A stretch of DNA of 64,000 nt, from assembly GCA_964592425.1 (NCBI GenBank), contig CAZQCG010000004.1, positions 74,257 through 138,256 of the forward strand. The letters run 5' to 3'. Below are positions 28,750 to 47,956 of this stretch, in pieces. The position numbers and the translations under genes were made by a program. Numbering within the stretch: position 1 is the first letter of the stretch; every line of letters starts with the position of its first letter. A model generated the notes under the pieces. That model saw only the letters and a program-made list of their open reading frames with translations, searched no databases and was not told the DNA's origin. Source of the stretch: an uncultured Chloroflexaceae bacterium (GTDB lineage: Bacteria > Chloroflexota > Chloroflexia > Chloroflexales > Chloroflexaceae).

Positions 28750-28760
28750 GAGCACACCCT

Positions 28761-30358: not shown

Positions 30359-30378
30359 TTGTCGTCAGGTAGAAGCCT

Positions 30379-32115: not shown

Positions 32116-32123
32116 GAGCTACT

Positions 32124-35078
32124 ATGCTGAAGCGCATCCCCTTTCGCCGCTTCCTGCCCGACCTGCTGGCCCTGCTCCTGCTAGCTACCCTACCGCTGCT
32201 CGTCTTCTGGCAAGTCTGGGCACCCAACCCGGCCGACCGGGTGATCTTCGGCGGTGACATTTTGATGGGGGCCTACCCCACGCGGGTCTTTGTCCATCGG
32301 CTCTTCGACGCTGGCATGGTACCCCTCTGGAATCCCTACCAGCTTGGCGGGATGCCTCTGCTGGGTGATGTGCAGGTAGCGCCCTACTACCTGCCCAACC
32401 TGCTGCTCGACTGGCTCTATCGGGGTCAGGAGTTATCGTACCTGGCCTTTGAGTTACTAGTCGTTGCGCATTATGCTCTGGGCGGGCTCTTCCTCTATGC
32501 CTACCTGCGCGGGCTGGGTGTAATCCCGACAGCGGCGTTAATTGGTTCAATCGCCTTTCAGTTCAACGGCTTCTTTGTCGGCCATCGTGGGCACTACAGC
32601 ATGCTTGCGGTCACGGTCTGGTTGCCCGCCGTACTCTGGACGCTCGACCGAAGCTGGCATACACCACGCCCAGCCGCCATGATCGCCTGGAGTGTCGCCG
32701 CCGGTCTGGCCCTCAGCCAGATGGTGATGGCCGGCCATCCGCAACTGACACTCTACTGTGCGCTGGCCATTGCCGCCTACGCTGCCTATCGCTGGGCCGA
32801 CGCCTGGAAGCATCCCGCCAGCAAGTGGGAGCGCCTGCGTGTTCCAGCCACCTTCGCCCTGGCTGGCCTGCTGGCCCTCGGCATCGCCGCCGTCACCCTC
32901 TTGCCCGTCGCCGAGTTGCTCGGGCGCTCACGGCGCGGCGATCTCTCCTATACCTTCACAGCCCAGCACTCGCTCATGCCACGCAACCTGCTCAGCCTGC
33001 TCATGCCCGAATTTTTGAACTGGAGCGGCACCGAGTACCGCATCTACGCCGGTATTCTCACCCTGGCCCTGGTGGCGGTTGCCTGGGCAGTGCCGGAACA
33101 TGCCCGGCCTGAGCGGCGCTTCTTTACGGTGACGATTGCCGTGGCACTGATCATTGCCCTGGGTGGCTTCACCGCCCTGCACGGCCTGCTCTACCGCTTT
33201 GTACCGGGCCTCGGCTCGGTGCGCGTCAGCGCCCGCGCCTTCTACATCGCCAACCTGGCCCTGGCTGTACTGGCGGCCTTCGGTGCCGAACACCTGCTGC
33301 GTGGCTGTACGATCATCGAGCAGCAACGTCTGCGCCGGCTTGTGCATGGGGCAATGATCATGCTAACCGGGGCACTGCTGGTTGGGATCGGAGCCTATGC
33401 CCTGCTGGTCGGCAACTATCGCCCGGTCGGCGAGGAGTTCTACTTCGCCGAGAATCTCTTTAACCGCGACCCCTCCTCAGATACCTACACCCTGCTGACC
33501 CAGACCGTCAACGCTTACGGCGTCTTCCTGGTGCTGCTGACCACCGCGATTGTGCTGCTCTGGACCTACGCCTTCGGGCGCTTGAGCCGGCCGGGGCTGG
33601 CCCTGGCGATGATCCTCTTGATCGTGCTCGATATGGCCACCTTCACGCCCTATCACGATACAATTCGGGCCGATCCCGACACGGCCCGTTTTACCGTACG
33701 CCAGTACGCCACGACCATGCTGACGGAAGATTGGCAGATCATCGACCAGGATGTACTGATCGAGCGCCTGGCCGCCCTACCCGATGCCCTACGGGTAGAC
33801 AACGCCGCCGAGGTCTTGCCCGACAACTACAGCCAGATCTACCGCATCGCCTTTGCCACTGGCTATAACGTGCTCGACCTGCAAGAGCGTTTTACCTTGC
33901 TCTCGCAATGGCCCTACCTGAGTGATGCCGCCCGCCGCGACCTGCTCAACACCGGCTATGTGCTCACTGCGCCTGAGACAACCGATCCGCCCGAAGAGGG
34001 TGCGCGCCTGATCGTGGAGAACAGCCAGGGTCGGCTCTGGGAGCGGGCGGTGCAGCCAGCCTACACTCACTTCAGCACCAGCCTGCGCCCTGCCTCCACC
34101 CTGATCACACTGAACGGCCTGCTCAACCTGCCGGGTGACAGCCTGAACACCCGGCCCACCCTGAGCGCCGATGAGGGCAATCTCCACACGACCCTCGCCG
34201 AACTCTGGCCCGAAGCAGTCGATCCGGCTCTCTATATGATCGGCACAAGCGGCGTGCAGAGCCCGGTGGCGCTCAGTGTGCTGGCGGGCGGGCCGATCCG
34301 CTACAGCGCGGTCATCGTTGACGGCGTGACCGTCACGCCTAAACAGCGCGGGATCGTGATCGCCATGATCGACCCACAGAACGGAACCGTGCTCAAAGCG
34401 GGCGGCTTCGACACCTACCAATCAGCAGCAGAGGCCGATCGGCTGGTGAGTATGATCGAGGCAGCCCCGAACGGCACGATTGTTGCTCTGGCCACCTATG
34501 ACGAAGGGCTGGCGAAGATTGGCCCGGCGGCCCAGGCCGCAATTGGAGGGCTGGGCGGACAGATCAACCTGGCAAACCAGGTTGGTGCGGCCTACGCCCT
34601 GATCGGCGTCAAAGGCGCTCCCGCAGGCTCGGCCCTTGAGGCGCTCGACCGGGTGCCGGTCATGCTTGATCTTGGGCCGGGGGCCATGCCAGCAGGCCCG
34701 GCGCAGGTGCGCAGCCACATGCTAAGCTACACAGCGGAGCGCATCAGCCTGAGTGTGGAGAATGATGTGCGTGGCCTGCTAACGATCAGCGAGAGTACCT
34801 ATCCCGGTTGGGAAGCCTACGTGGACGGTATGGCCACCCCGATCCTGCGGGCCAACGGCCTGCTGCGGGCCATCATCCTGCCGCCGGCCCTGGCCGGACA
34901 TCCCCACGAAGTCACCTTCGTCTACCGTCCGCTGAGTGCGCGCCTGGGTGGGGCCGTCAGCCTGCTCAGCCTGGCCCTGGCCGCCGCCATCAGCCTGAGC
35001 TGCGCCGTGGCCCTGGTGCCGCCTCTGACCTGGCCCCGCCGCCGCCGGACGGTGCTCAGTTTGCCACCGGCACGCTAG
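32124..35078 (+). CDS. YfhO-family GT-C membrane protein with ILEI/FAM3-like insert
   Basis: PLWNPYQLGGMPLLGD, AGHPQ, C-terminal SESTYPGWEAYVDG...RANGLLRAI (YfhO); insert RGIVIAMID...FDTY...VALATYDE...AYALIGVKG. Confidence 0.8.
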   Translation: MLKRIPFRRFLPDLLALLLLATLPLLVFWQVWAPNPADRVIFGGDILMGAYPTRVFVHRLFDAGMVPLWNPYQLGGMPLLGDVQVAPYYLPNLLLDWLYRGQELSYLAFELLVVAHYALGGLFLYAYLRGLGVIPTAALIGSIAFQFNGFFVGHRGHYSMLAVTVWLPAVLWTLDRSWHTPRPAAMIAWSVAAGLALSQMVMAGHPQLTLYCALAIAAYAAYRWADAWKHPASKWERLRVPATFALAGLLALGIAAVTLLPVAELLGRSRRGDLSYTFTAQHSLMPRNLLSLLMPEFLNWSGTEYRIYAGILTLALVAVAWAVPEHARPERRFFTVTIAVALIIALGGFTALHGLLYRFVPGLGSVRVSARAFYIANLALAVLAAFGAEHLLRGCTIIEQQRLRRLVHGAMIMLTGALLVGIGAYALLVGNYRPVGEEFYFAENLFNRDPSSDTYTLLTQTVNAYGVFLVLLTTAIVLLWTYAFGRLSRPGLALAMILLIVLDMATFTPYHDTIRADPDTARFTVRQYATTMLTEDWQIIDQDVLIERLAALPDALRVDNAAEVLPDNYSQIYRIAFATGYNVLDLQERFTLLSQWPYLSDAARRDLLNTGYVLTAPETTDPPEEGARLIVENSQGRLWERAVQPAYTHFSTSLRPASTLITLNGLLNLPGDSLNTRPTLSADEGNLHTTLAELWPEAVDPALYMIGTSGVQSPVALSVLAGGPIRYSAVIVDGVTVTPKQRGIVIAMIDPQNGTVLKAGGFDTYQSAAEADRLVSMIEAAPNGTIVALATYDEGLAKIGPAAQAAIGGLGGQINLANQVGAAYALIGVKGAPAGSALEALDRVPVMLDLGPGAMPAGPAQVRSHMLSYTAERISLSVENDVRGLLTISESTYPGWEAYVDGMATPILRANGLLRAIILPPALAGHPHEVTFVYRPLSARLGGAVSLLSLALAAAISLSCAVALVPPLTWPRRRRTVLSLPPAR

Positions 35079-35435: not shown

Positions 35436-36077
35436 ATGGAGAAGAGCATCACGATCAGCAGCAGTCAGCAGCGGCTTGGGCGACGTCTGGGCCTCACACC
35501 CTATTACCGGATCGCCACCCAGGAACCGAACCTGCTACAGCTCGAGTCCTACCCGGAGGCCAACCGGGGCATGGGCCTGGCTGTGCTGGCAGGCGGCATC
35601 ACACTGATCCTGCTCGCGCTCGTCGTGGGTCTGAGCGGGCTGAGTAGCGCCGCTGCTGGCTCTGGCTTTGCCGTCGCGGCCCTGGCGGCAGTCATTGCGG
35701 CCGCCCTGGCCGGGTTGGGCTACCAGCGCGTGGTTGGCGGCTATGCCGTGCTGACCACCCGCAACAGCATTATTGCCAACAGCGAGGCTGCCGACCTCAG
35801 CTTTCGCCAGCACAGTGCCGTTGGTGGCGAGCGCATCCAGGTGCTCAGCTTTGCTCAGATCAGTGGCCTGCGCCTACGCCGGCGCCCCCTGGCGACCGGC
35901 TGGCCCATCCGGCGCATCCAGCCGATTGTCGCCCTTGAGCTGATGGTCGGTGAGCAAATCTGGGTCGTCGACACCTCCGCCGACCCGGCCACCCTCCAGC
36001 CAACCGCGCTGGCCCTGGGCGAACTCCTGGGCCGCACGGCGATCAACAGCGATGGTTCTTCGCCAGCAGGGAATTAG
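35436..36077 (+). CDS. Hypothetical membrane protein (two TM helices)
   Basis: 213-aa ORF with two hydrophobic segments; TATAAT at 35391-35396 upstream. Confidence 0.7.
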   Translation: MEKSITISSSQQRLGRRLGLTPYYRIATQEPNLLQLESYPEANRGMGLAVLAGGITLILLALVVGLSGLSSAAAGSGFAVAALAAVIAAALAGLGYQRVVGGYAVLTTRNSIIANSEAADLSFRQHSAVGGERIQVLSFAQISGLRLRRRPLATGWPIRRIQPIVALELMVGEQIWVVDTSADPATLQPTALALGELLGRTAINSDGSSPAGN

Positions 36078-36089
36078 GCAAGCCCTGCC

Positions 36090-36237
36090 CAGCGCCTAAG
36101 CAAAGTCGCAAAGCAAACGCCCCCTGGCTACCGCCTGCGCTGCGGCCTACTCCAGATGCGTTCCACGCTTTGATACACGCTTCGCGCTCCTCTCGCGCTC
36201 CTCAGGATGCACAAACCGCAACTTTGCTCAGACCCTA
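36090..36237. repeat. Degenerate ~148 bp MITE-like element
   Basis: Left CAGCGCCTAAGCAAAGT vs reverse complement of right end TAGGGTCTGAGCAAAGT (13/17). Confidence 0.45.
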
Positions 36238-36512
36238 AATCTCTACCATCTTGCCGTTCCAGGCGTGTACAGAGTATGTTATATTGTCAGCATACAATTG
36301 TGGTTTGTCATATTTTGAGCCAGACAATCTAGAGTAATCCTACCTGGGGTTACGAAGGCTCTGGCAGCAACTTCGACCGGTAAGGCTTCAGAATGCCGTG
36401 GAGTTATTGAAGGCTTCACGACCCTGATGGGCTTGCTATACCCATACAAATAAGACAAACTGCAAACTAGAAGTCGTGTTGATGGCGTACCAGATCAAGG
36501 AGGATCGCACCC

Positions 36513-39257
36513 ATGCGGAAGAAGACCCTGACCGTCAATGGCTCGCAGCAAACGGTGATCGCTAACCCTGAGGCTTCCCTTGTTGACGTGTTACGCAAAC
36601 AACTCCACCTCACGGGAACCAAAGTTTCTTGTGACACTGGTCACTGCGGTGCATGCTCCGTCATCGTCAACAACAAGCTGACCCTGGCCTGTCTTACTCC
36701 GCTGAGCAAGGTTCCCGATGGTGCAACCATCACGACCGTGGAAGGGATCGGCCAGCCCGCCGCGCTGCACCCCCTCCAGCTGGCAATGACCACGCGTGGT
36801 GCCGCACAGTGCGGCTTCTGTACACCCGGCTTCGTCGTCTCAGCAAAGGCCTTACTCGACCAGAACCCCAATCCCAGCCGTGAGCAGGTGCGTGACTGGT
36901 TCACCAAGCAGCACAACGCCTGCCGCTGCACCGGCTACAAGCCCATCGTCGATGCAGTGATGGACGCCGCAGCCGTCATGCGCGGCGAGGTTCCGGTCGA
37001 GTTCCTTGAGTACAAGCCCGAACCAGACGGTCGCATCTGGGGCAGCAGTTACCCCCGCCCTAGCGCTGTCGCAAAGGTCACCGGCACCCTCGACTTTGGC
37101 CAGGATCTCGGCCTCAAGCTGCCCCCAGATACCCTCCAGCTCGCGCTCGTCCAGGCGACGGTCTCTCACGCCAACATCCTCTCCATTGATACGCGTGAGG
37201 CCGAGCAAATGCCGGGTGTGGCGGCGGTACTCACCCACAAAGATGTCAAGGGCAAGAATCGCATTACTGGTCTGATCACCTTCCCCACTAACAAGGGTGA
37301 TGGCTGGGATCGTCCGATCCTCTGTGATACCAAGGTCTTCCAGTATGGCGACGCGATCGCGATCGTCTGTGCCGACACGATCGCGCAAGCCAAGGCGGCA
37401 GCCGCAAAGGTCAAAGTCGAATTGGAATTGCTCCCGGCGTATATGAGTGCGCCCGAAGCTATGGCCGACGACGCGATCGCGATCCACCCCGGGACACCAA
37501 ATGTCTACTACCATCAGCGGATTGCGAAAGGCGAGGAGACGACACCCCTGATGAGCAGTGCTGCCCACACCGTCGAGGGCAGTTTCTACCTCCAACGTCA
37601 GCCCCACCTGACCATTGAAGCGGACATGGGCTTCGCCTACTTCGACGAGGAGGATCGGCTCACGATTCACTCAAAGAGCATCGGCCTTTACCTCCACCAC
37701 GCTATGATTGCCCCCGGACTTGGCATCGCACCAGAGAAACTGCGCATGGTGCTCAACCCGGCTGGCGGCACCTTCGGCTACAAGTTCTGCCCAACCATCG
37801 AGGCCCTCTTGGGCGTCGCTGCGATGGCTACCCAACGCCCAGTCTATCTCGAGTATGACTACGAGCAATTCATCACCTACACCGGCAAACGCTCGCCCTT
37901 CTGGGTCACCGTCAAGCTCGGGGCCGACGCTGACGGGAAGCTGGTGGCGATGGAGAGCGACTGGACGGTAGATCACGGCCCCTACTCGGAGTTTGGCGAC
38001 CTGCTCACCCTGCGCGGGGCTCAGTTCATCGGCGCAGGCTACCATATCCCCAACATCCGGGGACAGGGACGCACGGTGGCAACGAACCACGCCTGGGGGG
38101 CCCCCTTCCGCGCCTACGGCTCGCCACAGAGCTTTCTCGCCTCGGAGAGTCTGATGGATGAGTTGGCCGAGAAGATGGGCATCGACCCATTGGAGTTGCG
38201 CGAGCGCAACATCTATCGCCCCGGCGCGACGACACCGACTGGCCAGGCACCGGAGGTTTACCCCTTCCCGCAGATGTTTGAGCAACTGCGCCCGCTCTAC
38301 CTCGAGGCTAAGAAGCGCACCGCCCGCGAGTCGACAGAGCAGGTCAAACGTGGGGTCGGTATCTCTGTCGGTGTCTATGGTGCTGGCCTTGACGGCGTAG
38401 ATGGTGCCGAGGCATGGGCCGAGTTGACCAAGCGTGGGGTGACGATTGCGACAACCTGGCAAGATCACGGGCAAGGCGCAGACATCGGTGCGCTCGGCAC
38501 GGCCCACGAGGCCCTGCGCGCCCTTGAACTCGATGCCAACGAGATCTCTCTCATTCTCAATGATACGGCTCTCGCGCCCAACGGTGGCCCCTCGGGTGGC
38601 AGTCGCAGCCAGGCGGTGATCGGCCAGGCAATCAAGAATGCCTGCGACAACCTGCTCGACGCGCTGCGCAAGGAGGATGGGAGCTACCGCACCTACAACG
38701 AGATGGTCAGCGAGGGGAAGCCGCTACGCTACACGGGCAACTGGGCCGCGACCATGAACAGCAACTGCGATGAGAACGGCCAGGGTAACCCGTTCGCGAC
38801 ATATATGTATGGGGTATTCATGGCTGAGGTGGCCGTGAACATGAAGAGCGGCAAAGCGACCGTAGAGGGTATGACCGTCTTCGCCGACGTAGGCAAGATC
38901 AACAATCGCCTGGCGGTGGATGGGCAGATCTATGGCGGCGTCGCACAGGGCATCGGCCTGGCGCTGAGCGAGGACTTCGAGGATCTGACCAAGCATCGCA
39001 CGCTACGTGACTGTGGCATCCCCTACCCGCGCGATGTCCCTGACCGTTTTGCCATCCATTACATCGAAAGCCCGCGCGAGCATGGAGTCTTTGGCGCAAC
39101 CGGCGTCGGCGAGTTGCCACTCACCTCGCCCCATGTGGCGATCATGAACGCCATCAAGGCTGCTACTGGTGTGCGCATCACCAACCTGCCCGCCCGCCCT
39201 GAGAAGATTCTCGCCGGACTGAGGGCCATCTCGGGTGACCCCGTCACAGCAGGGTGA
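36513..39257 (+). CDS. mop: Molybdopterin aldehyde oxidoreductase, single-chain Desulfovibrio Mop type
   Basis: CDTGHCGAC..C and CGFC..CRC [2Fe-2S] motifs; KNRITGLITFPTNKGDGWDRPILCD, DHGPYSEFGDLLTLRGAQ, GVGELPL match D. gigas Mop as recalled; AAGGAGG RBS. Confidence 0.93.
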   Translation: MRKKTLTVNGSQQTVIANPEASLVDVLRKQLHLTGTKVSCDTGHCGACSVIVNNKLTLACLTPLSKVPDGATITTVEGIGQPAALHPLQLAMTTRGAAQCGFCTPGFVVSAKALLDQNPNPSREQVRDWFTKQHNACRCTGYKPIVDAVMDAAAVMRGEVPVEFLEYKPEPDGRIWGSSYPRPSAVAKVTGTLDFGQDLGLKLPPDTLQLALVQATVSHANILSIDTREAEQMPGVAAVLTHKDVKGKNRITGLITFPTNKGDGWDRPILCDTKVFQYGDAIAIVCADTIAQAKAAAAKVKVELELLPAYMSAPEAMADDAIAIHPGTPNVYYHQRIAKGEETTPLMSSAAHTVEGSFYLQRQPHLTIEADMGFAYFDEEDRLTIHSKSIGLYLHHAMIAPGLGIAPEKLRMVLNPAGGTFGYKFCPTIEALLGVAAMATQRPVYLEYDYEQFITYTGKRSPFWVTVKLGADADGKLVAMESDWTVDHGPYSEFGDLLTLRGAQFIGAGYHIPNIRGQGRTVATNHAWGAPFRAYGSPQSFLASESLMDELAEKMGIDPLELRERNIYRPGATTPTGQAPEVYPFPQMFEQLRPLYLEAKKRTARESTEQVKRGVGISVGVYGAGLDGVDGAEAWAELTKRGVTIATTWQDHGQGADIGALGTAHEALRALELDANEISLILNDTALAPNGGPSGGSRSQAVIGQAIKNACDNLLDALRKEDGSYRTYNEMVSEGKPLRYTGNWAATMNSNCDENGQGNPFATYMYGVFMAEVAVNMKSGKATVEGMTVFADVGKINNRLAVDGQIYGGVAQGIGLALSEDFEDLTKHRTLRDCGIPYPRDVPDRFAIHYIESPREHGVFGATGVGELPLTSPHVAIMNAIKAATGVRITNLPARPEKILAGLRAISGDPVTAG

Positions 39258-39272
39258 CGATCAATCGGGCCG

Positions 39273-39305
39273 AGACCTCGCAGGTCTGGCAGATCTGCGA
39301 GGTCT
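39273..39305. repeat. Intercistronic palindrome
   Basis: AGACCTCGCAGGTCT-ggc-AGATCTGCGAGGTCT (14/15 complementary). Confidence 0.7.
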
Positions 39306-39324
39306 GGGATAGCCGGAAGCCTCT

Positions 39325-41634
39325 ATGGAACAGATTGAGCTGCGGGCGCTTGAAGCTCGCTGTATTCAAGAAGAGCCGCCACCCTGCCAGGCAACATGTC
39401 CTGTCCACGTTGATGTGCGCGCCCTGGCAGGATCGGTAGGCAAGGGCAACTTTGCGGAAGGCCTCGCGATCTTTCGCCGCACGATCCCTTTCCCTCACCT
39501 CGTCGCCCGTATCTGTGATGAGCCTTGCCGATCATTATGCACGCGTGGTGCCGTTGGTGAGCCGATTCAGATCCGTGAATTGGAGCTCGCCTGCGTCAAC
39601 CACGGGACGGTTGCCGCGGAAAAACCCCGTCAGCTACCGCGCCGGCAAGGCCGTGTGGCGGTGGCTGGTGGGGGCCTCAGCGGCATGACAGCCGCCTTCG
39701 ACCTGGCCCGTAAGGGCTACCGCGTAACGCTCTTCGAGGCATGCGATCGCCTTGGCGGGGATCTGTGGCAAACGCCGCCCGACGACTTGCCCTGGGAGCT
39801 TATCAATACCGAGTTGTCCGTGCTTGTCACACTCGGAGTTGAGTTGCGCCTTGGTGAGCCCGTCAACTCCGCCTACACCCTGCGTCAAAACTTCGACGCT
39901 GTCTATGTTGCAACCGGCTCTGGGGCGCAACTGGCTGACCTACCCCAGACGTCCGCAGGCGGAATTGTCACTGAACTAACCACCTTTGCCACCAACCTGG
40001 ACGGCGTCTTTGCTGGCGGCGCTCTGCTGCGCCCCGGTCAGCCACCCTCACCAATCACTGCCATCGCCGATGGGCGTCGAGCCGCGATCTCGATCGACCG
40101 CTACCTTCAGAAGGTTTCGCTTACGGCCTCACGCAGCGCTGAGGGCACCCAGACGACACGGCTCTTCACTAACACAACGGGCATTGTGCCGCTGCTGGCT
40201 GTTCGCCCGGCCCGGCCCGCCGATGGCTTTCACCCCGATGAAGCTGTTGCTGAAGCTGCACGCTGTCTCCTCTGCGAGTGCATGGAGTGCGTGAAGGTTT
40301 GCCCCTACCTTGAGCACTATGATCGCTACCCGCGTAAGGGTATTCGCGAAGTCTACAATAATCTGGCGATCGTCCAGGGCGAGCGCAAGGCCAACCGCTT
40401 CATCAATAGCTGTAGCCTTTGTGGCCTCTGCGCTGAGGTCTGTCCCACCAATCTGAGTATGGGCACCGTCTGCAAGCATGCCCGTCAGGCAATGGTGCGC
40501 CAGGGACGTATGCCGCCCTCGGCCCACGACTTCGCGCTGCGCGACATGGCCTTCAGCAACGGCCCACAGTTCACCGTAGCTCGTCACCAGCCCGGCACAA
40601 CCGCAAGCACCTATGTCTTCTTCCCTGGCTGCCAGCTCAGCGCCTCGACGCCAGAACACGTCGAACGGGTCTACGCCGACCTGCGCCAGCGTATGGGTGC
40701 ATCTGTCGGGCTACTGTTGCACTGCTGCGGTGTCCCAGCTGACTGGGCCGGTCGCCCCGAGTTATTCGCTACGAGCCTGGCTGCGCTCAGCGACCAGTTA
40801 CGCAGCCTGGGAAATCCCACCGTCATCCTGCCCTGCTCGAGTTGCTACCAGACCTTCAAGCTGCATCTGCCTGAGATACGCATCGTCTCGCTCTGGGATC
40901 TCTATGCCGAGCGCGGGCTGCCGCCAGATGCACGAACCGGGGCGTTGACCGTGGCAGTCCATGACCCGTGCAGCACGCGCTATGAGGTGGGCATCCAGGA
41001 GGGTGCGCGAACGATTATTGACCAACTGGGGTACGCCGTCGAAGAATTGTCTCTCAGCCGTCAGAGGACGACCTGCTGTAGCTACGGAGGAGTCCAATGG
41101 CTGGCCAACCCCGCAGTGGCGCGCAAGGTGGTCGAACGCCGCGTCGCCGAGAGCACCCGCGACTACGTGACCTACTGCGCGATGTGTCGCGACTTCTTCG
41201 CGGCCTATGGCAAACGCACACTTCACCTGCTTGACCTTATCTATGGTGATGACGGGCGCAACGGCGGGCGTGGCCCCGGTTTCTCGCAGCGCCACGAAAA
41301 CCGTGCCCGGCTCAAGCGGAGACTGCTTCTGGAGGTCTGGGGAGAGACGATGGATAATCAGGCAAGCTACGAGGCCATCCAGCTCTTTGTTTCCGACGAG
41401 ATCCGCGCACGGATGGAGGAGCGGCACATCCTTGACGAGGATCTGCGCCGCGTGATCGAGCATGCCGAGCGTACCGGCGCACGCTTTCACAACCAGGCCA
41501 GCGGACGCTGGTTAGCAAGCTACAAACCTACGGCAGTCACCTATTGGGTCGAATATGAGCCTCAGGGCGATGGCTTCCTGATCACCAATGCGTACAGCCA
41601 CCGCATGGAGATTGTCGAGGATCACCACGCATGA
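39325..41634 (+). CDS. Flavin/Fe-S oxidoreductase: GltD-like N-terminus, ferredoxin motifs, two CCG domains, small C-terminal domain
   Basis: CQATCP..RICDEPC..C, VAGGGLSG, CLLCECMECVKVCP, CSLCGLCAEVCP, FPGC/CCG/PCSSC, HDPC/CCSYGG/YCAMC. Confidence 0.85.
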   Translation: MEQIELRALEARCIQEEPPPCQATCPVHVDVRALAGSVGKGNFAEGLAIFRRTIPFPHLVARICDEPCRSLCTRGAVGEPIQIRELELACVNHGTVAAEKPRQLPRRQGRVAVAGGGLSGMTAAFDLARKGYRVTLFEACDRLGGDLWQTPPDDLPWELINTELSVLVTLGVELRLGEPVNSAYTLRQNFDAVYVATGSGAQLADLPQTSAGGIVTELTTFATNLDGVFAGGALLRPGQPPSPITAIADGRRAAISIDRYLQKVSLTASRSAEGTQTTRLFTNTTGIVPLLAVRPARPADGFHPDEAVAEAARCLLCECMECVKVCPYLEHYDRYPRKGIREVYNNLAIVQGERKANRFINSCSLCGLCAEVCPTNLSMGTVCKHARQAMVRQGRMPPSAHDFALRDMAFSNGPQFTVARHQPGTTASTYVFFPGCQLSASTPEHVERVYADLRQRMGASVGLLLHCCGVPADWAGRPELFATSLAALSDQLRSLGNPTVILPCSSCYQTFKLHLPEIRIVSLWDLYAERGLPPDARTGALTVAVHDPCSTRYEVGIQEGARTIIDQLGYAVEELSLSRQRTTCCSYGGVQWLANPAVARKVVERRVAESTRDYVTYCAMCRDFFAAYGKRTLHLLDLIYGDDGRNGGRGPGFSQRHENRARLKRRLLLEVWGETMDNQASYEAIQLFVSDEIRARMEERHILDEDLRRVIEHAERTGARFHNQASGRWLASYKPTAVTYWVEYEPQGDGFLITNAYSHRMEIVEDHHA

Positions 41635-41849
41635 GCCAGGATGAACGCGCCGTGTGGGTTAACCACCCCGATCTGGTCTGTGGACGCTGCAACATGGCGC
41701 TCCAGGTGCGTCGGGTGAATGTGACCTACCTGGGAAATGCGTTCCCCGTAGAGTTGCTACGCTGTCCACATTGCGGGCTGACCTTCGTGCCCGAGGTGCT
41801 GGCTATGGGCAAGATGGCCGAAATTGAACAGGCCCTCGAGGACAAGTAG
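41631..41849 (+). CDS. Small Zn-ribbon protein (DVU_1557-like)
   Basis: CGRC...CPHCG, C-terminal EQALEDK; ATGA overlap with upstream gene. Confidence 0.85.
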   Translation: MSQDERAVWVNHPDLVCGRCNMALQVRRVNVTYLGNAFPVELLRCPHCGLTFVPEVLAMGKMAEIEQALEDK

Positions 41850-41850
41850 G

Positions 41851-42594
41851 ATGCTGGCCGACCTGCAGAACCCGCCAATCCGGGCAGGCAACCACTGCCA
41901 TCTGAACCCTCAGCTTGCGGCCTGCGCCCCGCCGATCCACCCTGGCGGGCTGGCCCTGACCCGACATGCCCTGGCACTCTGCGGGGCGCTGCCGGGGGCC
42001 TTGCTACTCGACCTGGGCTGCGGCGGGGGAGCCAGCGTGGCTCTCGCCGCCAGAGAGTTTGGCCTGGTAGCGTTAGGCCTTGATGTGCGTGTGACACCCT
42101 TGCCGCATGGCCAGATCCTCCCCGCTGGAGCGCTGCTTATTCAGGCGATCGCCGAGAGGCTACCGTTGCGCTGCGGCATTATCGACCTTATCCTGGCCGA
42201 ATGCAGCCTGTCGGTGGTCAGTGACCGGGCAGCCACGCTCAGCGAGATTCAGCGAGTGCTCCGTCCCGGCGGTGCGCTGATTATCAGCGATGTCTATCTG
42301 CGCAGCCCCGAGCGTGCACCTGATGTGGGCAACTTGCTGACTACAATGAGGCGTGGGCTGGCCCACTCGTGCGAGGCGATCTGCGCTGAGCTTGCCACGT
42401 ACGGGCTCACGGTCGAACATTGGGAGGATTGCTCAGTGGCTCTACACGATTTCGCCTGTGCAGCACCCCCAGAGGCAATAGCGACCTACTGGCAAGCCGC
42501 GCCAGGTGTCAACCCATTCGACGCCGCGTTGGCCATAGCTCGGGCCCGGCCAGGCTACTTGCTGCTGCTTGCCCGACGGATGGGAAGAGCATAA
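41851..42594 (+). CDS. Class I SAM-dependent methyltransferase (DVU_1556-like)
   Basis: PGGLALT, LLDLGCGGG, AECSLS, RVLRPGG.LIISDVY; ATG 1 nt after the upstream stop. Confidence 0.85.
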   Translation: MLADLQNPPIRAGNHCHLNPQLAACAPPIHPGGLALTRHALALCGALPGALLLDLGCGGGASVALAAREFGLVALGLDVRVTPLPHGQILPAGALLIQAIAERLPLRCGIIDLILAECSLSVVSDRAATLSEIQRVLRPGGALIISDVYLRSPERAPDVGNLLTTMRRGLAHSCEAICAELATYGLTVEHWEDCSVALHDFACAAPPEAIATYWQAAPGVNPFDAALAIARARPGYLLLLARRMGRA

Positions 42595-42596
42595 CA

Positions 42597-43040
42597 ATGG
42601 ACAATTTCAGCCAGACGATCAGCCTTGGGCGGCAAGGTTTTTTCTGCAGCCAGATCCTCATGCTCCAGGGGCTGGCGCTCCAGGGCAAGGAGAATCCCGA
42701 TCTGGTGCGGGCGATCCAGGGCCTCGCGGGCGGTATTGGCTTCACCGGCGGAAACTGCGGCGCATTGAGTGGTGGTGCATGCCTGCTCGGACTCTATGCA
42801 GGTAAGGGTCATGCCGATGAAGAAGAGGATCTACGCCTGATGCTGATGATCGGTGAACTGGTTGCCTGGTTCAAGGATCGCTTTGGGCAAGCGTACGGCG
42901 GGATCGATTGCAGCACGATCCTCGGTGACGGTATGGGCAGTCAACTAACCCGCTGCCCACTCATTGTCGAAGAGACCCTCCAGAAGGTCAAGGAATTACT
43001 CGTCTCGCATGGCTTCGACCTGATGGGCGAAAGCTTCTAA
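42597..43040 (+). CDS. C-GCAxxG-C-C family putative redox protein (DVU_1555-like)
   Basis: CSQ...CGALSGGACL...DC..I...CP; real start ATG 42597 (track start 42420 overlaps the upstream gene). Confidence 0.88.
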   Translation: MDNFSQTISLGRQGFFCSQILMLQGLALQGKENPDLVRAIQGLAGGIGFTGGNCGALSGGACLLGLYAGKGHADEEEDLRLMLMIGELVAWFKDRFGQAYGGIDCSTILGDGMGSQLTRCPLIVEETLQKVKELLVSHGFDLMGESF

Positions 43041-43054
43041 AGATACCTAAACCT

Positions 43055-44434
43055 ATGCTTGACCAGATCCTCGCCGAGACCGAGAGTGTGTGCCCGCAGT
43101 GTCTCGTCCGCATCCCTGCACAACGAGTGGCACGCGGCGAAAACGTCTACCTGCGCAAGGTCTGCCCGGAACATGGACCATTTGAGACGGTGATCTGGCG
43201 TGGGAAACCCACGCTGTCGACCTGGGTCAGCCCAAAGACACCGAGCTTTCCGGTGGCCCCACTCACCAGCGTAACCCATGGCTGCCCCTACGACTGTGGC
43301 CTCTGCGCCGAGCACCAGCAACACTCCTGCTGCGTGCTGTTGGAGGTAACCCAGCGCTGTGACCTGCGCTGTGCCGTTTGTTTCGCCAATGCAGGCAAGA
43401 GTGCCCCACCTGATCCCGACCTGGCGACGATCACGGGCTGGTTCCAGCACCTGCTCGACAGCAGCGGCCCCTGCAATATCCAACTATCGGGCGGGGAACC
43501 ATGTGTGCGCGACGACCTGCCCGAGATCGTCGCAGTGGGGCGGACACTAGGCTTCAGCTTCTTTCAAGTCAACACCAATGGCCTGCGGCTGGCCCGCGAT
43601 CCGGCGTTCGCGACCCGTTTACGTGAGGCAGGCGTCTCTACCATCTTTCTCCAGTTCGATGGCATCAATGATGCGGCCTACATCGCCCTGCGCGGGCGTC
43701 CATTGCTTGCTCAGAAGCAGGCTGCCATCGAACACTGCGCCGCTGCCGGTCTTGGTGTCGTCCTGGTGCCAACCCTGGTACCGGGCGTAAACGTCGATCA
43801 GATCGGTATGATGCTCAGCTTCGCCCTGGAACACATGCCGTCCGTACGAGGGGTTCACTTCCAGCCGATCAGCTACTTCGGGCGCTACCCGCAGCCGCCC
43901 GACGACACTATGCGGATCACTATCCCCGAGGTGATCCGCGCCATCGCAGAGCAGACCGACGGGCGTATGCCCGTCGCCAGCTTCATCCCTGCAGGGGCTG
44001 AGCACGCAATGTGTTCATTCCATGGGAACTTCGTGCTTATGCCAGACGGGCACGTGCTACCCCTTATGCGCAGCCGACCCTCGTCATGCTGTGGCCCATC
44101 AGTACCCGTGATCGCCGAGGAGGGTGCCCGCCGCTCACGCGCCTTTGTGGCCACCCACTGGGCCGCTCCAGTCATCACGCCTTGTAAAAATGAAAATGAT
44201 GGGGCGAGCCTCTTCGGTGAGTGGGATCGTTTCGTCCAGCGGGCAAAAACCCATACCTTCTGCGTTTCGGGGATGGCCTTCCAAGACGCCTGGACCCTCG
44301 ACCTTGAACGACTACGCCTCTGCTATATCCACAACATCAGCCCCAAGGGCCTGGTCGTACCGTTCTGCGCTTACAACCTGACGACTCAGGATGGCCGATC
44401 ACTCTACCGCGTGTCGCACGCCGATCAAGTATGA
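43055..44434 (+). CDS. Radical SAM protein, TrsS/MJ0619-like
   Basis: TESVCPQC..K.CPEHG, CPYDCGLC.EH.QHSC, CDLRCAVC, QLSGGEP, FQPISYFGRY, MAFQDAW, PFCAYN. Confidence 0.88.
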   Translation: MLDQILAETESVCPQCLVRIPAQRVARGENVYLRKVCPEHGPFETVIWRGKPTLSTWVSPKTPSFPVAPLTSVTHGCPYDCGLCAEHQQHSCCVLLEVTQRCDLRCAVCFANAGKSAPPDPDLATITGWFQHLLDSSGPCNIQLSGGEPCVRDDLPEIVAVGRTLGFSFFQVNTNGLRLARDPAFATRLREAGVSTIFLQFDGINDAAYIALRGRPLLAQKQAAIEHCAAAGLGVVLVPTLVPGVNVDQIGMMLSFALEHMPSVRGVHFQPISYFGRYPQPPDDTMRITIPEVIRAIAEQTDGRMPVASFIPAGAEHAMCSFHGNFVLMPDGHVLPLMRSRPSSCCGPSVPVIAEEGARRSRAFVATHWAAPVITPCKNENDGASLFGEWDRFVQRAKTHTFCVSGMAFQDAWTLDLERLRLCYIHNISPKGLVVPFCAYNLTTQDGRSLYRVSHADQV

Positions 44435-45774
44435 CCGCGACTGTCGTCAGCACCACTCATACCGTACTCAACCCTGCGCTCACCCCGCTGGAGCCGTGGA
44501 TCGCAGCAACGATTGGGGCTCCTTCTCCGCTGGCACGGGATGCCCTCATACGCTGGCAGTTGAATCGGCTACAGGCGACGGTGAACCTGGCTCGGCAGCG
44601 AAGCCCTTTCTACCGCAAACGCCTTGTCGGAGCACCAGAGGAACTGACGAGTCTCGCTGATCTGGCCTTGCTACCTTTTACCACGGCTGACGACCTGCGG
44701 GCCAACCCACTACAACTCCTCTGTGTCTCACAGGACGCTATCCAGCGCATGATCACCCTGAGCAGTTCAGGCACCACCGGCGCGCCCAAGCGGGTCGCCT
44801 TCACCCATGCCGATCAGGAGTTAACCCTGCGCTTCTTCCAGGTGGGGATGAGTACCTTTACCCATCCAGGCGAGCGGGTTCTGGTCATGCTCCCTGGCCA
44901 GACGCCAGGCAGCGTAGGTGAACTGTTGCTCACCGCTCTGAGGCGCCTGGGTGCTGAAGGTATCCTGCACGACCCACTGGCGGATCCACACATGACAGCG
45001 CAGGTGATCGCAGCTAGTGGGGCAACTGTCCTGATCGGCACGCCCAGGCAGGCCATCATCCTGGCGCGCCACCCTGCCACAGCTGGTGCACGGCTGCGCA
45101 GTGCATTGCTCACTACGGATCATGTGCCGCACGCCATCGTTAGCGCCGTCGAGGCGGCCTGGGGCTGCACCGTCTACAACCATTACGGTATGACTGAAAT
45201 GGGGCTCGGCGGGGGCGTCGAATGCCAGGCGCGGCACGGTTACCACTTGCGCGAGGCGGATCTGCTCATCGAAATTGTGAACCCGGTGAGCGGAGTACCG
45301 CTCCCAGAGGGCGAGGCTGGCGAGATTGTCTTTACTACCCTCACACGAGAGGGGATGCCGCTCATCCGCTACCGCACCGGCGACGCCGGGCACTTCATCC
45401 CTGAGGCATGCCCCTGTGGGACAACGCTGCGAACCCTTGCACGGGTCACCCATCGGCCAGGTAGCTCGCCGAGGTTAGGGCATGCGCTGCTGACGATGGC
45501 TGATCTGGATGAAGCCCTCTTTCCGCTAGAGGGGGTCGTGGGCTTCACCGCTACACTCACCTATGAAGCCTCTGACCAATCCATTCTCATCGTGGAGATC
45601 GAGGCGCTGTCCAACTTCATGCTGGATAGGCGGATAGTCGAGCAAAGCCTGATGACGCTACCGGCGCTGAGCTATGCGGTCAACCTGGGTAGATTGGATC
45701 TGGTCATCAAGCAGCGGGCCTACGATCCGACGTGCAGGCACTCCTTCCAGAAGCGCGCCATTCAATGCCGATGA
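44431..45774 (+). CDS. AMP-dependent CoA-ligase-like protein (PaaK/F390-synthetase-like, DVU_1553-like)
   Basis: SSSGTTGAPKR, HYGMTEMG, GEIVFTTL.REGMPLIRYRTGD. Confidence 0.88.
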   Translation: MTATVVSTTHTVLNPALTPLEPWIAATIGAPSPLARDALIRWQLNRLQATVNLARQRSPFYRKRLVGAPEELTSLADLALLPFTTADDLRANPLQLLCVSQDAIQRMITLSSSGTTGAPKRVAFTHADQELTLRFFQVGMSTFTHPGERVLVMLPGQTPGSVGELLLTALRRLGAEGILHDPLADPHMTAQVIAASGATVLIGTPRQAIILARHPATAGARLRSALLTTDHVPHAIVSAVEAAWGCTVYNHYGMTEMGLGGGVECQARHGYHLREADLLIEIVNPVSGVPLPEGEAGEIVFTTLTREGMPLIRYRTGDAGHFIPEACPCGTTLRTLARVTHRPGSSPRLGHALLTMADLDEALFPLEGVVGFTATLTYEASDQSILIVEIEALSNFMLDRRIVEQSLMTLPALSYAVNLGRLDLVIKQRAYDPTCRHSFQKRAIQCR

Positions 45775-45800: not shown

Positions 45801-45834
45801 AAGAAAAAACAGAGCCGCCCCCGGGGGCGGCTCT
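45801..45834 (-). terminator. Intrinsic terminator of pufLM (likely bidirectional)
   Basis: 24-bp palindrome AGAGCCGCCCCCGGGGGCGGCTCT followed on the minus strand by GTTTTTTCTT. Confidence 0.85.
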
Positions 45835-45859
45835 AAAGATCATGTGGATCGGACAACAG

Positions 45860-46777
45860 TTACGGTGTGGGTGGCGGGAACTGCGGATAGGCGATCCCGG
45901 CCTCAACGCCCCACTGGAACCAGTTGTTGACGAAGTCGGGCATCGAGAGGAAGATGCCGATTGCCCCGGTCACCCCACAGAGCCAGGCAAACCAGAAGGC
46001 CCAGAGGTGGATCGAGTAGGCATTAGCATTAAAGCCCATACACCAGCGCCAGAAGAGTTGCGCCCGCTCGGTGCCTGTGCCGGGTGCCTGCATCTCGTCC
46101 CACTCCTCGTGCGCCGCATACTTCTCAAGCGCCCAGATCGTGCCGGCGTGCATGGCCAGCACCACCGTCGAGCCAAGCAGGAAGAAGATCGAGAGCATGT
46201 GGAAGGGATTGTAGTAGAAGTTGCCGTAGCGGACACTAACGTTGTTCGTCCAATCAAGCAGGGCCTTGAGGCCATGCGGCGGGGCCTCGGACCAGTCACC
46301 CATCCACATCGGACGGATGATATAGATCACCAGATAGAGAATGATCGCCCCGCTGAAGCCGTAGGCCAGATAGGGCTTAATCCCCAGAGTCGTGGCCCGC
46401 GAGTAGAGGAACATAAACCAGCAGAGGATCGACACTGTCAGGAAGAAAGTCGCGATCAACCACCAACCGCCCTGTTCAAGGGGGGCAAAGCTAAGGCCAT
46501 AGGCGGTGGAGGGTGGGTCGATCTGCAAGACGAAGAAATACTTGGCGAAGGCGATCGGGTTCCAGTTCACCTGGGCCGCCATCACCACGAGCCAGATAAA
46601 GGTGAAGATCGCGCCGGTCACATAGGCAGCGGCATTCCAGAAACCAAGGAAGGTCGGACCAATCTGACTATCGAGGCCGAAGTTCTCAAGAATCGGCAGT
46701 TCAATCGCCTTGCCGATGCGGCCTTTTGCGCGGGGCCCCAGCTCAAGGTCGCCGGGGATTGAATTCATCGTTGCCAT
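45860..46777 (-). CDS. pufM: Type II reaction centre M subunit
   Basis: YYNPFHMLSIFFLLGS..LAMHAG, WRWCMGFNAN; KALLDW has Leu in place of the accessory-BChl His; ATG 46777 after GGGAG. Confidence 0.97.
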   Translation of the reverse strand: MATMNSIPGDLELGPRAKGRIGKAIELPILENFGLDSQIGPTFLGFWNAAAYVTGAIFTFIWLVVMAAQVNWNPIAFAKYFFVLQIDPPSTAYGLSFAPLEQGGWWLIATFFLTVSILCWFMFLYSRATTLGIKPYLAYGFSGAIILYLVIYIIRPMWMGDWSEAPPHGLKALLDWTNNVSVRYGNFYYNPFHMLSIFFLLGSTVVLAMHAGTIWALEKYAAHEEWDEMQAPGTGTERAQLFWRWCMGFNANAYSIHLWAFWFAWLCGVTGAIGIFLSMPDFVNNWFQWGVEAGIAYPQFPPPTP

Positions 46778-46868
46778 AGTCACTCCCTATTGCGATTGTG
46801 AATTTTGGAGGCTGGGTGCGCAAGCACCCGACGGCCATCCAGCGGCACCAACCCAAAACTCAAAATCG

Positions 46869-47804
46869 TTACACGCCGCTCCACCAGGGCAGTACATTCC
46901 AGAAGTTCCAGAAGCTCACCCAATCCTGCACCAGCCAGCCGGAGAACAAGATGCAGAGGTTCGCCGAGAGAACACCGCCACAGGCGAAGAGGAAGCCCAG
47001 GCGGTGAATGCCCGACTCGCCGACGGAGTAGATGATCGCGTCGCGGAAGAACTGGTTCTCGATGTCGCCGCCCTCAGGGCCACGGTACTGGGCCGCGCTG
47101 AGGATAAGCGAGCCGTGACAGGCGAGCAGCCAGGTGGAGCCAAAGAGCCCAGCGATGCCCAGGGCGTGGAAGGGGTTGTAGAAGAAGTTGTTGTAGCGAT
47201 AACCGAAGTTAGAGACCCAGTCCAAGTGCGGCATCACGCCAAGCACAAAACCCTCGTGCCACTGACCCATCGCAATCGGGCGGATGATCTGCAAGGTCAC
47301 CCAGGCAGAGAAGACAACGCCGTAGGCCACCGCAATGTGGTAGCCCATATTCAGCTTCATGCTGATGTCTACCTGGCGCATCATCCAACCGAAGAAGGCG
47401 ATGGTGGCAAAGAGCACCGTCATCTGCCAGGCAAAGCCGGGTTGACCCGGACTGACCAGAGCCAGGCCAAGCTCAGCCGGGGGCGGATCAATGCGCCCGG
47501 CAAAGAAGTTCTGCGGATAGGAGAAAGGCCCACGCCACACAACCGCATCGAGGTAGAAGAACGTGCCGAAGATAACCCCGAGCACCGAGATGAAGCCCCA
47601 GAAGCCGACATAGAAGGGGCCGACCCAAAAATCAAACGGGTCATACTTGAACAGGCTGCTGAAGGTTGTCCGACCCTTGATCTTGTACTCCGGCTCCAAC
47701 TCCGCAACCGTCCGCCCTCCCGGCACCCGCGTCGAGCGTGCGCCGTCCAGGACAGTAAAGCCAAAGTCCGGGAAGCGGGGATCCTTTGCCTTGGTACCAC
47801 TCAT
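46869..47804 (-). CDS. pufL: Type II reaction centre L subunit
   Basis: MSGTKAKDPRFPDF, FDFWVGPFYVGF, HLDWVSNFGY, YNPFH, ACHGSLILS; ATG 47804 after GGGAG (track start 47984 runs into the promoter). Confidence 0.97.
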   Translation of the reverse strand: MSGTKAKDPRFPDFGFTVLDGARSTRVPGGRTVAELEPEYKIKGRTTFSSLFKYDPFDFWVGPFYVGFWGFISVLGVIFGTFFYLDAVVWRGPFSYPQNFFAGRIDPPPAELGLALVSPGQPGFAWQMTVLFATIAFFGWMMRQVDISMKLNMGYHIAVAYGVVFSAWVTLQIIRPIAMGQWHEGFVLGVMPHLDWVSNFGYRYNNFFYNPFHALGIAGLFGSTWLLACHGSLILSAAQYRGPEGGDIENQFFRDAIIYSVGESGIHRLGFLFACGGVLSANLCILFSGWLVQDWVSFWNFWNVLPWWSGV

Positions 47805-47927
47805 AACAGGCTCCCTTTCCAGAGGAGACGATGCACGGGGCCGTGGTGTGGTGGCCGTCGCCGTCTGCCGGTAACAGCCATGAAGAAAGAAGTTGCGGAA
47901 AAGAAAAAAGTTGATGCGCTCACGCGA

Positions 47928-47956
47928 AGTATAATACGCCGCAAAATCCTTGTCAA
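47928..47956 (-). promoter_or_regulatory. pufLM promoter
   Basis: TTGACA (47956-47951), 17 nt, TATACT (47933-47928). Confidence 0.8.

Follow-up and report, generated by a model that had tools for sequence, protein, structure and literature searches.

A complete Mop–TrsS gene cassette beside the photosynthetic reaction-center genes of a Chloroflexaceae bacterium, with evidence for its lateral insertion

The DVU1553–DVU1559 neighborhood of Desulfovibrio vulgaris Hildenborough gives its name to a set of protein families that are encoded together with the molybdenum-containing aldehyde oxidoreductase Mop and the radical S-adenosylmethionine (SAM) enzyme TrsS. NCBI curates the set, and a 2026 review (PMC13188914) lists TrsS (NF045646) and credits it to Haft and Tolstoy (2025, mSystems 10:e0141724). 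Searches of the literature for a function of DVU1553–1558, of DUF7479, or of the C-GCAxxG-C-C family yielded just proteomic lists and selenoprotein tables, and we found no experimental report there on the function of the cassette. Here we describe a copy of this set in a 64,000-nucleotide stretch of contig CAZQCG010000004.1 (the window) from an uncultured member of the Chloroflexaceae. The locus had been singled out from the DNA letters alone in a note (the original prediction) that called the cassette cryptic and its accessory genes devoid of demonstrated function. The first of these claims does not hold, the cassette being a recognized one, and the second agrees with our having found no function-assigning paper.

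The seven genes lie co-directionally on the plus strand at positions 36513–45774, and a listing of the open reading frames (ORFs) of the window reproduced exactly the intergenic gaps reported earlier (67, −4, 1, 2, 14, and −4 nucleotides). For each product there is an NCBIfam model, named for D. vulgaris DVU1553–1559 or for TrsS, whose curated cut-off it exceeded, so that the proposed match to that neighborhood is borne out in seven cases of seven and the gene set is one that has already been catalogued. The domains recognized by Pfam likewise agree with the content given in the original prediction. In the window the widespread, known Mop–TrsS (DVU1553–1559-type) set of seven genes is complete and intact. 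The gene order (mop, the DVU1558-type gene, the DVU1557-type gene, and the genes for a methyltransferase, a C-GCAxxG-C-C protein, TrsS, and a ligase) is kept in most of 80 related loci, the best of 595 TrsS relatives in a scan of one genome per species; the loci that share it span Chloroflexota, Thermodesulfobacteriota, Bacillota, Acidobacteriota, and others, and because the order recurs in so many loci from other phyla it is conserved far beyond chance. The D. vulgaris neighborhood has the same seven families, the same order and strand, and the same tight coupling. The window copy differs from it in lacking XdhC, MocA/HD, and MoeA-like genes and an attached sigma-54 regulator, in having no selenocysteine, in belonging to a phototrophic host in which it adjoins pufLM, and in having sequences that are nearest to Anaerolineae versions. 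The best overall explanation, and one that we hold to be somewhat better than an even bet, is that a known cassette was inserted here laterally and that aldehyde oxidation feeds a tailoring trio built around the radical SAM enzyme.

The evidence for insertion comes from the flanks of the cassette. On its left lies a gene for a 213-residue protein (35436–36077, plus strand) with no match in Pfam or NCBIfam. On its right, two minus-strand genes for type II reaction-center proteins, pufM-like (45860–46783) and pufL-like (46869–47984), converge on the ligase gene, 86 nucleotides from its stop codon. Both match PF00124 (Photo_RC; 298.5 and 253 bits, at G000:C4:120149–121871 in the numbering of the host genome), and we infer from gene order which is pufL and which pufM. 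Homologs of the 213-residue gene (38%–59% identity) lie convergent with pufM and 83–304 bp away from it in three congeners (G001, G002, and G004) and in a genome of another genus (G006, genus 3). In the window, 9.8 kb with the cassette separates the two genes; DNA similarity to the congeners, whose puf genes are 87%–90% identical to those of the window, ends at about 36007 and restarts at about 45869–45885. A GC-rich hairpin followed by a T-run (45810–45835, minus strand), which would be the terminator of the convergent puf genes, stands at the right edge of the inserted block. No flanking direct repeats, insertion-sequence remnants, or tRNA-like features were found at the edges. That the host is a phototroph, as had been proposed, is borne out by the two Photo_RC genes beside the ligase gene and by the presence of pufLM in most genomes of the family.

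A second copy of the cassette is found in another genus of the family (G007). The G007-type cassette is whole on a 21-kb metagenome contig, with the same seven genes (87% identity to the window for Mop, 77% for TrsS, 63% for the ligase, and 50% for the methyltransferase), and it is flanked there by a DUF4914 gene and a CRISPR array. Since the site is empty in the congeners and the G007-type copy stands in another context, the seven genes appear to act as a moved unit. The CRISPR array of that contig (L113, 12660–13331), with the 37-nucleotide repeat GTCGCGACCACTGCCCCGCGCTGAAGGGGTTTGAAAC, directly follows the cassette. TrsS scored above its cut-off in two of the 41 closest genomes, these being the host itself and G007, in none of the four congeners, in none of the 16 genomes sampled from the three other families of the order, in three of 78 family genomes (three of 22 genera), and in three of 401 genomes taken phylum-wide. 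Among the 41 relatives, the Mop ortholog is likewise limited to the host and G007, the remaining matches being paralogs of about 570 bits. The original prediction had held the locus to be laterally acquired and not vertically conserved across the Chloroflexales, and it is supported on this point by the patchy distribution, the empty congener site, and the trees described below.

Nearest to the window among the best 80 of the 595 relatives are Anaerolineae loci (TrsS 57%–65% and Mop up to 74% identical), followed by those of Syntrophobacter, Sporomusa, Pelosinus, Desulfosporosinus, Acidobacteriota, Desulfosarcina, and Desulfovibrionaceae, with Acetobacterium, Clostridium tyrobutyricum, Sulfurospirillum, and a spirochaete as further hosts. 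The cassette had been thought typical of Deltaproteobacteria and Firmicutes, a placing that needs correcting: the nearest copies belong to the same phylum as the window, and further ones are present in Acidobacteriota, Spirochaetota, and Campylobacterota. The TrsS tree pairs the window with G007 (SH-aLRT 99) inside an Anaerolineae-dominated Chloroflexota clade (support 93–94), and the copies of genome G094 and of Dehalococcoidia branch elsewhere. In the Mop tree the window groups with four Anaerolineales-type sequences (support 95) inside a seven-member Chloroflexota clade. Forcing the five Anaerolineae-type Mop sequences into one clade costs 35.8 log-likelihood units (approximately unbiased [AU] test, p-AU 0.032), the test having been run after the G007-type Mop was added and on a group picked post hoc from the tree. 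These trees and the empty site support what would be a lateral gain from an Anaerolineae-type donor into the Chloroflexaceae and later movement inside the family.

An alternative is that the cassette is ancestral to the Chloroflexota or the Chloroflexaceae, was inherited vertically, and has been lost nearly everywhere. Its closest relatives are indeed in the same phylum, and its composition is native: GC content is 0.617 as against 0.625, third-position GC content and codon bias are within the range of the genome, and the comparison of codon usage proposed along with the original prediction gave no foreign signal. Moreover, copies occur in three Chloroflexaceae genera, and their TrsS proteins, that of the third copy (G423) being 76%–78% identical to both others, differ about as much as puf genes do between genera (72%–75% identity). 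Vertical descent would, however, require the cassette to have been lost from about 75 of the family's 78 genomes and from every one of the 16 sampled in the other families of the order, and it leaves aside that three congeners and a member of another genus have no insert at this site, that the sister copy stands in a different context, that the Dehalococcoidia and G094 copies lie elsewhere in the TrsS tree, and that the AU test disfavors a separate Anaerolineae clade (p = 0.032). We consider it improbable. Native composition and inter-genus-like divergence nonetheless count against a lateral gain, as does the only moderate support for nesting within Anaerolineae, some of the starred support having been lost on adding the G007-type Mop; an old acquisition with many losses and one relocation is the weaker alternative.

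The first gene of the cassette (36513–39257) encodes Mop, a single-chain molybdenum aldehyde oxidoreductase of 914 residues (NF045668, pterin_aldehy, 1600 bits; cut-off 1100) with domains for two [2Fe-2S] clusters and Mo-pterin and with no FAD domain (Pfam Fer2, Fer2_2, Ald_Xan_dh_C, MoCoBD_1, and MoCoBD_2). It matches D. gigas MOP (PDB 1SIJ and 1VLB) at 1342 bits, colinearly across residues 3–905, and the two proteins are alike in all eight [2Fe-2S] cysteines (Cys40/45/48/60 and Cys100/103/137/139), in the glutamate of the GVGELP motif, and in the absence of the FAD domain. A repeat search found an inverted repeat with 19-nucleotide arms that are 89% complementary (39270–39309, plus strand) within the 67-nucleotide gap that follows mop, and this repeat could make Mop and the accessory genes differ in expression level.

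The second gene (39325–41634) encodes a DVU1558-type fusion protein of 769 residues (NF045663, 1028 bits; cut-off 530; Pfam Fer4_20, NAD_binding_8, Fer4_17, and CCG). An NfnB/GltD-like N terminus, with an Fe-S site and one FAD Rossmann fold, is followed by a 2×[4Fe-4S] module, by two HdrB/EtfD-like CCG domains, and by a small C-terminal alpha/beta domain (41350–41634, plus strand). NfnB/GltD chains in the PDB are matched solely over residues 6–223 (the Fe-S site and the one Rossmann fold), and no separate NAD(P)H domain was detected in the protein. Two CxxCxxCxxxC motifs and the complete C..CCG..CxxC cysteine sets of both CCG domains (C436/C467/C468/C504/C507 and C549/C584/C585/C618/C621) are invariant in 47 sequences. 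In Foldseek searches a homologous natural fusion resembled NfnABC at its N terminus and the CCG reductase EtfD (9OJN) in its middle. With CCG iron-sulfur reductases of the HdrB/HdrD, EtfD, GlpC, and LutA types fused to an NfnB/GltD-like module the DVU1558-type protein shares two CCG domains, each with five invariant cysteines, as well as two ferredoxin-type clusters and the NfnB-like Fe-S/FAD N terminus; what it adds to them is the C-terminal alpha/beta domain, paired with or fused to a zinc ribbon.

That zinc ribbon is the product of the third gene (41631–41849), a 72-residue protein of the DVU_1557/DUF7479 family (NF045645, 92.9 bits; cut-off 60; PF24292). Its Cys17, Cys20, Cys45, and Cys48 are invariant in an alignment of related loci. 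Of the 72 related loci with a match, 70 have a protein ending in LEDK and the other two have LEEK and MEDK there; in 150 family representatives that are mutually no more than 50% identical, the LEDK ending is found 102 times and an ending of the form [LMI]E-x-K at least 130 times. The ribbon domain sits at the extreme C terminus of every representative, and the natural fusions that we examined all join it to the C terminus of D1558-like/CCG proteins. One of these, a CCG–ribbon fusion of 852 residues, is predicted to be compact (AF2 pLDDT 92.8, pTM 0.89), with the tail as its terminal helix.

Could the C-terminal domain of the DVU1558-type protein and the ribbon be a domesticated toxin–antitoxin-like pair, that is, DUF4258/BrnT with an MqsA-type zinc finger? 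The two units do travel together, and in some variant loci the domain is a separate small ORF. Yet the Pfam hints (DUF4258, E 0.019, 15.7 bits; MqsA, E 0.14) both fall short of the thresholds set by the curators (25 and 30 bits), which leaves the pair outside the type II toxin–antitoxin families; it is always found within a redox operon, often fused to a CCG protein; and we know of no toxin–antitoxin parallel for the near-invariant LEDK end. We regard this idea as scarcely credible.

The LysW/ArgW amino-group carriers and the lipoyl-lysine systems are the background against which such a ribbon can be viewed. With the former it shares the small zinc ribbon, a conserved C terminus, and an adjoining adenylating/ligating enzyme; with the latter (LplA and LipA) its cassette shares the pairing of a ligating enzyme with a radical SAM enzyme. 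Unlike LysW, to which it has no sequence similarity, the ribbon has a helical tail that ends in lysine (LEDK) and not in glutamate, and its neighboring ligase is of the ANL/PaaK type, whereas LysW uses an ATP-grasp enzyme and the lipoyl system LplA. The Lys-ended helical tail and the ANL-type ligase set the ribbon apart from the LysW-type carriers, and the likeness is one of functional analogy only.

The fifth gene (42597–43040) encodes a C-GCAxxG-C-C protein of 147 residues (DVU1555 family; NF045669, 161.9 bits; cut-off 103) with invariant cysteines at positions 17, 54, 105, and 120. The protein is predicted to be all-helical (AF2 pLDDT 94), and its sole fold match in the PDB is split-Soret cytochrome c (1H21; prob 0.99, TMq 0.62, E 0.15), an entry whose title includes the words "a novel iron centre." We take the extra iron center of that cytochrome to be a Cys-bound [2Fe-2S] cluster, and judging from the predicted model the C-GCAxxG-C-C protein is probably a small Fe-S redox protein. 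Together, the DVU1558-type, zinc-ribbon, and C-GCAxxG-C-C proteins look like electron-transfer parts. The original prediction had it that the accessory genes serve cofactor or small-molecule biosynthesis and not just electron transfer. Since three of the six accessory proteins are carrier-like, that statement must be limited to the methyltransferase, TrsS, and the ligase, for which it stands.

TrsS, the product of the sixth gene (43055–44434), has 459 residues (NF045646, 670 bits; cut-off 490) and an N-terminal zinc ribbon that is recognized by Pfam. It is a paralog of the tetraether lipid synthase Tes (GDGT-MAS) and not Tes itself, scoring 346.7 bits on the Tes model NF045702 (cut-off 450). 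Against GDGT-MAS (MJ0619, 7TOL) it scores 280 bits, and it keeps the ligands of all four metallocofactor sites described for that enzyme (PMC9433317): C13x2C16x20C37x2H40 for the rubredoxin site, C77/C81/C84 and H87 for the auxiliary cluster, C102x3C106x2C109 for the radical SAM cluster, and M407, C423, and C438 for the C-terminal cluster, with Met407 aligned to the labile Met439 of GDGT-MAS. All four sites align to those of 7TOL and are invariant in the TrsS alignment. TrsS differs from GDGT-MAS in its residues 315–398, which cannot be aligned, and from Tes/GDGT-MAS in its context, which consists of soluble redox proteins, a ligase, and a methyltransferase, and not of lipid synthesis genes. 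Though not Tes, TrsS likely works as GDGT-MAS does, and because the metal sites are conserved it would abstract hydrogen from an inert carbon and hold an intermediate on a cluster. Pfam names its N-terminal domain (HMPTM) for a proposed pterin methylase. The founding annotation, that of MJ0619, is uncorroborated, the enzyme being a lipid C–C synthase (PMC9433317), and we reject that function for TrsS.

The TrsS of the window is of the form without selenocysteine, its ORF being open with no internal stop, and among the 80 related loci there was no TGA codon aligned to a cysteine. One TrsS relative, from a Syntrophaceae metagenome-assembled genome (L042, about 4068–4070), has an in-frame TGA at the position of near-invariant Gly388 (…SL-TGA-YWD), which could be selenocysteine, a sequencing error, or the mark of a pseudogene. 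In a subclade of TrsS from a Desulfosporosinus sp. (L048, 7144–12145) and a Syntrophomonadaceae metagenome-assembled genome (L060, 9986–12857), DUF5714 is either fused to the enzyme or next to it; L060 further has DUF364/DUF4213 ("putative heavy-metal chelation") beside TrsS, and L048 has a CbiM gene some 2 kb upstream. These TrsS genes are not beside other cassette genes, and in L060 a partial set lies 4–8 kb off on the opposite strand. Full-length Tes/TrsS-like paralogs that score 180–380 bits on the TrsS model occur in other Chloroflexota, including congener G001 (L011–L019 and L003–L006), and may be bacterial Tes-like enzymes unrelated to the cassette.

The fourth gene (41851–42594) encodes a class I SAM methyltransferase of 247 residues (DVU1556 family; NF045667, MTase_DVU1556, 170.7 bits; cut-off 155; Pfam Methyltransf_11) in which Cys57 is conserved in 96% and Cys118 in 100% of sequences. 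Its next-best NCBIfam matches are the models for ArsM, and the combination of ArsM with a radical SAM enzyme in arsenosugar and arsinothricin synthesis raises the idea that the trio of methyltransferase, TrsS, and ligase deals with organo-metalloids or metal cofactors (As, Se, Co, or Ni). That TrsS and C-GCAxxG-C-C families have selenoprotein members by name (PMC13188914), and the DUF5714, DUF364/DUF4213, and CbiM neighbors of the TrsS subclade just described would fit such chemistry. The likeness to ArsM is, however, generic, being confined to the SAM-binding region (about 50 bits, as against a cut-off of 263); ars genes and metal transporters are absent from the window and from most loci; and the 80 loci hold no Cys-aligned selenocysteine codon. 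Chemistry of this kind therefore seems to us highly unlikely.

The seventh gene (44431–45774) encodes a PaaK-like adenylate-forming ligase of 447 residues (DVU1553 family; NF045666, 455 bits; cut-off 300), which Pfam recognizes as an AMP-binding enzyme and which belongs to the PaaK structural family (132 bits against 4R1L) and conserves the motifs SSGTTG, YGMTE, YRTGD, and CPCG. Although it has the fold and the adenylation motifs in common with PaaK phenylacetate-CoA ligase, its scores on the models for that enzyme (148 and 132 bits) are far below the cut-offs (700 and 646), and it is not to be taken for PaaK.

Clues to the function of the cassette come from its neighbors and from variant loci. 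When every ORF of 83 related loci was clustered, an XdhC-like gene was found directly downstream of the ligase gene in 41 loci and a MobA-like (MocA-type) nucleotidyltransferase gene, often with an HD domain, in the same place in 42; a MoCF_biosynth gene lies upstream of mop in 21, and a sigma-54-type regulator, as read by eye, is present at a variable position in 16. None of the four is in the window. That XdhC-like and nucleotidyltransferase genes are usual companions missing from the window had been stated in the original prediction, which called for a search for them, and homologs do exist elsewhere in the genome: an XdhC homolog on contig 11, 40%–45% identical to XdhC of Anaerolineae cassettes, and a MocA-like gene on contig 30 (161 bits; cut-off 186). 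The same genome encodes several further xanthine-oxidase-family enzymes. Because of these two homologs the host could mature Mop in trans, and the trimmed cassette could still give active Mop.

The arrangement of the operon also bears on whether the accessory genes themselves mature or modify Mop, that is, its pterin cofactor, its molybdenum center, or the protein. In most loci a single operon has the six genes flanked by mop on one side and by cofactor genes (XdhC, MocA, and MoeA-like) on the other, and the pterin-methylase name of the TrsS domain, discounted above with its uncorroborated MJ0619 annotation, would point the same way. High-resolution structures of D. gigas MOP, however, show an ordinary molybdopterin cytosine dinucleotide (MCD) cofactor. 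Furthermore, in two loci (L071 and L080) the core is found with no Mop, and a tungsten-type aldehyde oxidoreductase of the AFOR family and a Cys-rich ferredoxin-like ORF abut the ligase gene, L071 having an aldehyde dehydrogenase beside the ligase as well. This is, on the gene content of the two loci, a non-orthologous replacement of the aldehyde-oxidizing partner, and because an AFOR-family enzyme can replace Mop, the core appears tied to aldehyde oxidation and not to Mop itself. Dehalococcoidia variants comprise TrsS, the methyltransferase, a D1558-like protein whose C-terminal domain is a separate ORF of 86–90 residues, and one to three ligases or TrsS paralogs, and are accompanied by a major facilitator superfamily (MFS) transporter; they have no zinc ribbon and, within 10 kb, no aldehyde oxidoreductase. 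That the core occurs with the unrelated AFOR-family enzyme or with no aldehyde oxidoreductase nearby speaks against a role in the Mop cofactor, and we think maturation of Mop unlikely, even if a cassette that serves very-low-potential Mo/W-pterin enzymes generally would accommodate the AFOR case. The same Dehalococcoidia variants also tell against the explanation that we favor, since they make aldehyde oxidation other than obligatory for the core. A further Mop-less locus (L072, 5509–7938) has an 809-residue fusion of a Mop-like N-terminal [2Fe-2S] domain with a bis-PGD molybdopterin oxidoreductase resembling formate dehydrogenase/thiosulfate reductase, directly upstream of the ribbon, methyltransferase, C-GCAxxG-C-C, TrsS, and ligase genes.

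The variants likewise touch on a catabolic route, in which Mop would oxidize an aromatic or aliphatic aldehyde, the ligase would make the CoA thioester, TrsS and the methyltransferase would tailor it, and the Fe-S proteins would dump the electrons. The ligase belongs to the structural family of phenylacetate-CoA ligase and directly adjoins the aldehyde oxidoreductase in L071 and L080, the Dehalococcoidia variants have their MFS transporter, and DVU1559 has been placed under ethanol metabolism in D. vulgaris proteomics (PMC10920352). But the 83 loci contain no genes for a thiolase, a hydratase, beta-oxidation, or ring reduction, the ligase scores 132–148 bits where the PaaK cut-offs are 646–700, and a near-invariant, carrier-like zinc ribbon is hard to fit into such a route. 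We view catabolism as unlikely.

We favor instead a scheme in which aldehyde oxidation supplies electrons to TrsS. Mop, or a tungsten-type oxidoreductase, would turn an aldehyde into the acid, and the two [2Fe-2S] clusters of Mop would pass low-potential electrons to the DVU1558-type protein, which would provide the flavin and Fe-S wire that Mop does not have and would end in HdrB-like CCG sites. The C-terminal docking domain, the zinc ribbon, and the C-GCAxxG-C-C protein would then relay the electrons to TrsS, which, in the manner of GDGT-MAS, would attack an unactivated carbon of its substrate and abstract the hydrogen there. The substrate, a hydrophobic molecule with a carboxylate, would have been adenylated by the PaaK-like ligase, and the methyltransferase would finish it. 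D. gigas MOP reportedly gives electrons to flavodoxin in vitro, and flavodoxin has been seen as its "missing flavin," the adjacent flavin/Fe-S/CCG protein going unmentioned (PMC10223205). The literature on D. gigas MOP thus names flavodoxin, whereas the window and most sampled loci encode a flavin/Fe-S/CCG protein directly downstream of mop, and this protein is in our view the likelier partner. The flavodoxin result weighs against the scheme, in which both the route of the electrons and the kind of substrate are deduced from domain content and gene order.

A more daring proposal joins several of these features. The C-terminal lysine of the ribbon (…LEDK-COOH) would be where a novel prosthetic group borne by the protein, a lipoate-like arm, is attached. 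The PaaK-like ligase would load a hydrophobic acid, perhaps the product of Mop itself, onto the lysine; TrsS would make a C–S or C–C bond on the chain by means of its auxiliary cluster; the methyltransferase would cap it; and the CCG domains, as docking or fusion partners of the ribbon, would redox-cycle the finished arm. The proposal fits because LEDK is near-invariant and because ribbon–CCG fusions exist, and we offer it as a conjecture that is decidedly unlikely to be right. If it were true, a lipoate-like swinging arm would serve very-low-potential aldehyde oxidoreductases.

The region between the 213-residue gene and mop (36078–36512) is window-specific and AT-rich at about 36270–36340, and is presumed to be the promoter or regulatory region of the cassette; it contains no match to the sigma-70 consensus on the plus strand and has no similarity to the region upstream of the G007-type copy. 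In congener G004 the spacer between pufM and the homolog of the 213-residue gene (L107, 5960–6260) consists of tandem GC-rich repeats, with units such as GAGGCGAGGAGGCGCAAGCCCTCGCCTCCTTCGCTTTGAGGATGCGTGAG and runs of GTCCTCGC. Plus-strand ORFs at 45842–47996 were rejected as downstream genes, being shadows of minus-strand pufM and pufL. The pufL-like ORF, of 371 codons, probably starts some 54 codons later than called, its homologs aligning from residue 55 on.

Farther out, a glycosylation/signaling operon lies upstream of the 213-residue gene, and glycosyltransferase genes lie farther downstream of puf. The glycosylation/partner-switching operon (21410–35078) is not beside the homolog of the 213-residue gene in the congener regions (L107–L109), this flank varying between species. 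Finally, a 519-residue ORF (48132–49691, minus strand) between a GT4 glycosyltransferase gene and the pufL-like gene matches nothing in Pfam or NCBIfam; congeners have a slot of equal size there (about 1.5 kb) with no detectable similarity, and the stretch, whose GC content is lower (0.58) and whose AT skew is strong, is perhaps non-coding or else a gene that evolves quickly.

By itself the discovery value of the locus is modest, the gene set having been catalogued already; its particular value lies in the evidence for insertion and in the phototrophic host. The cassette is found in hundreds of genomes of anaerobes from at least six phyla, where it surrounds one of the best-studied molybdenum enzymes, and the tungsten-type replacement of Mop, the fusions of the ribbon to CCG proteins, the near-invariant LEDK end, and the retained metal sites of GDGT-MAS are testable clues to its function. 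The empty site in the congeners amounts to a clean natural experiment, in which seven genes move as a unit without the genes for cofactor maturation, and the window copy puts the Mop–TrsS system in an anoxygenic phototroph.

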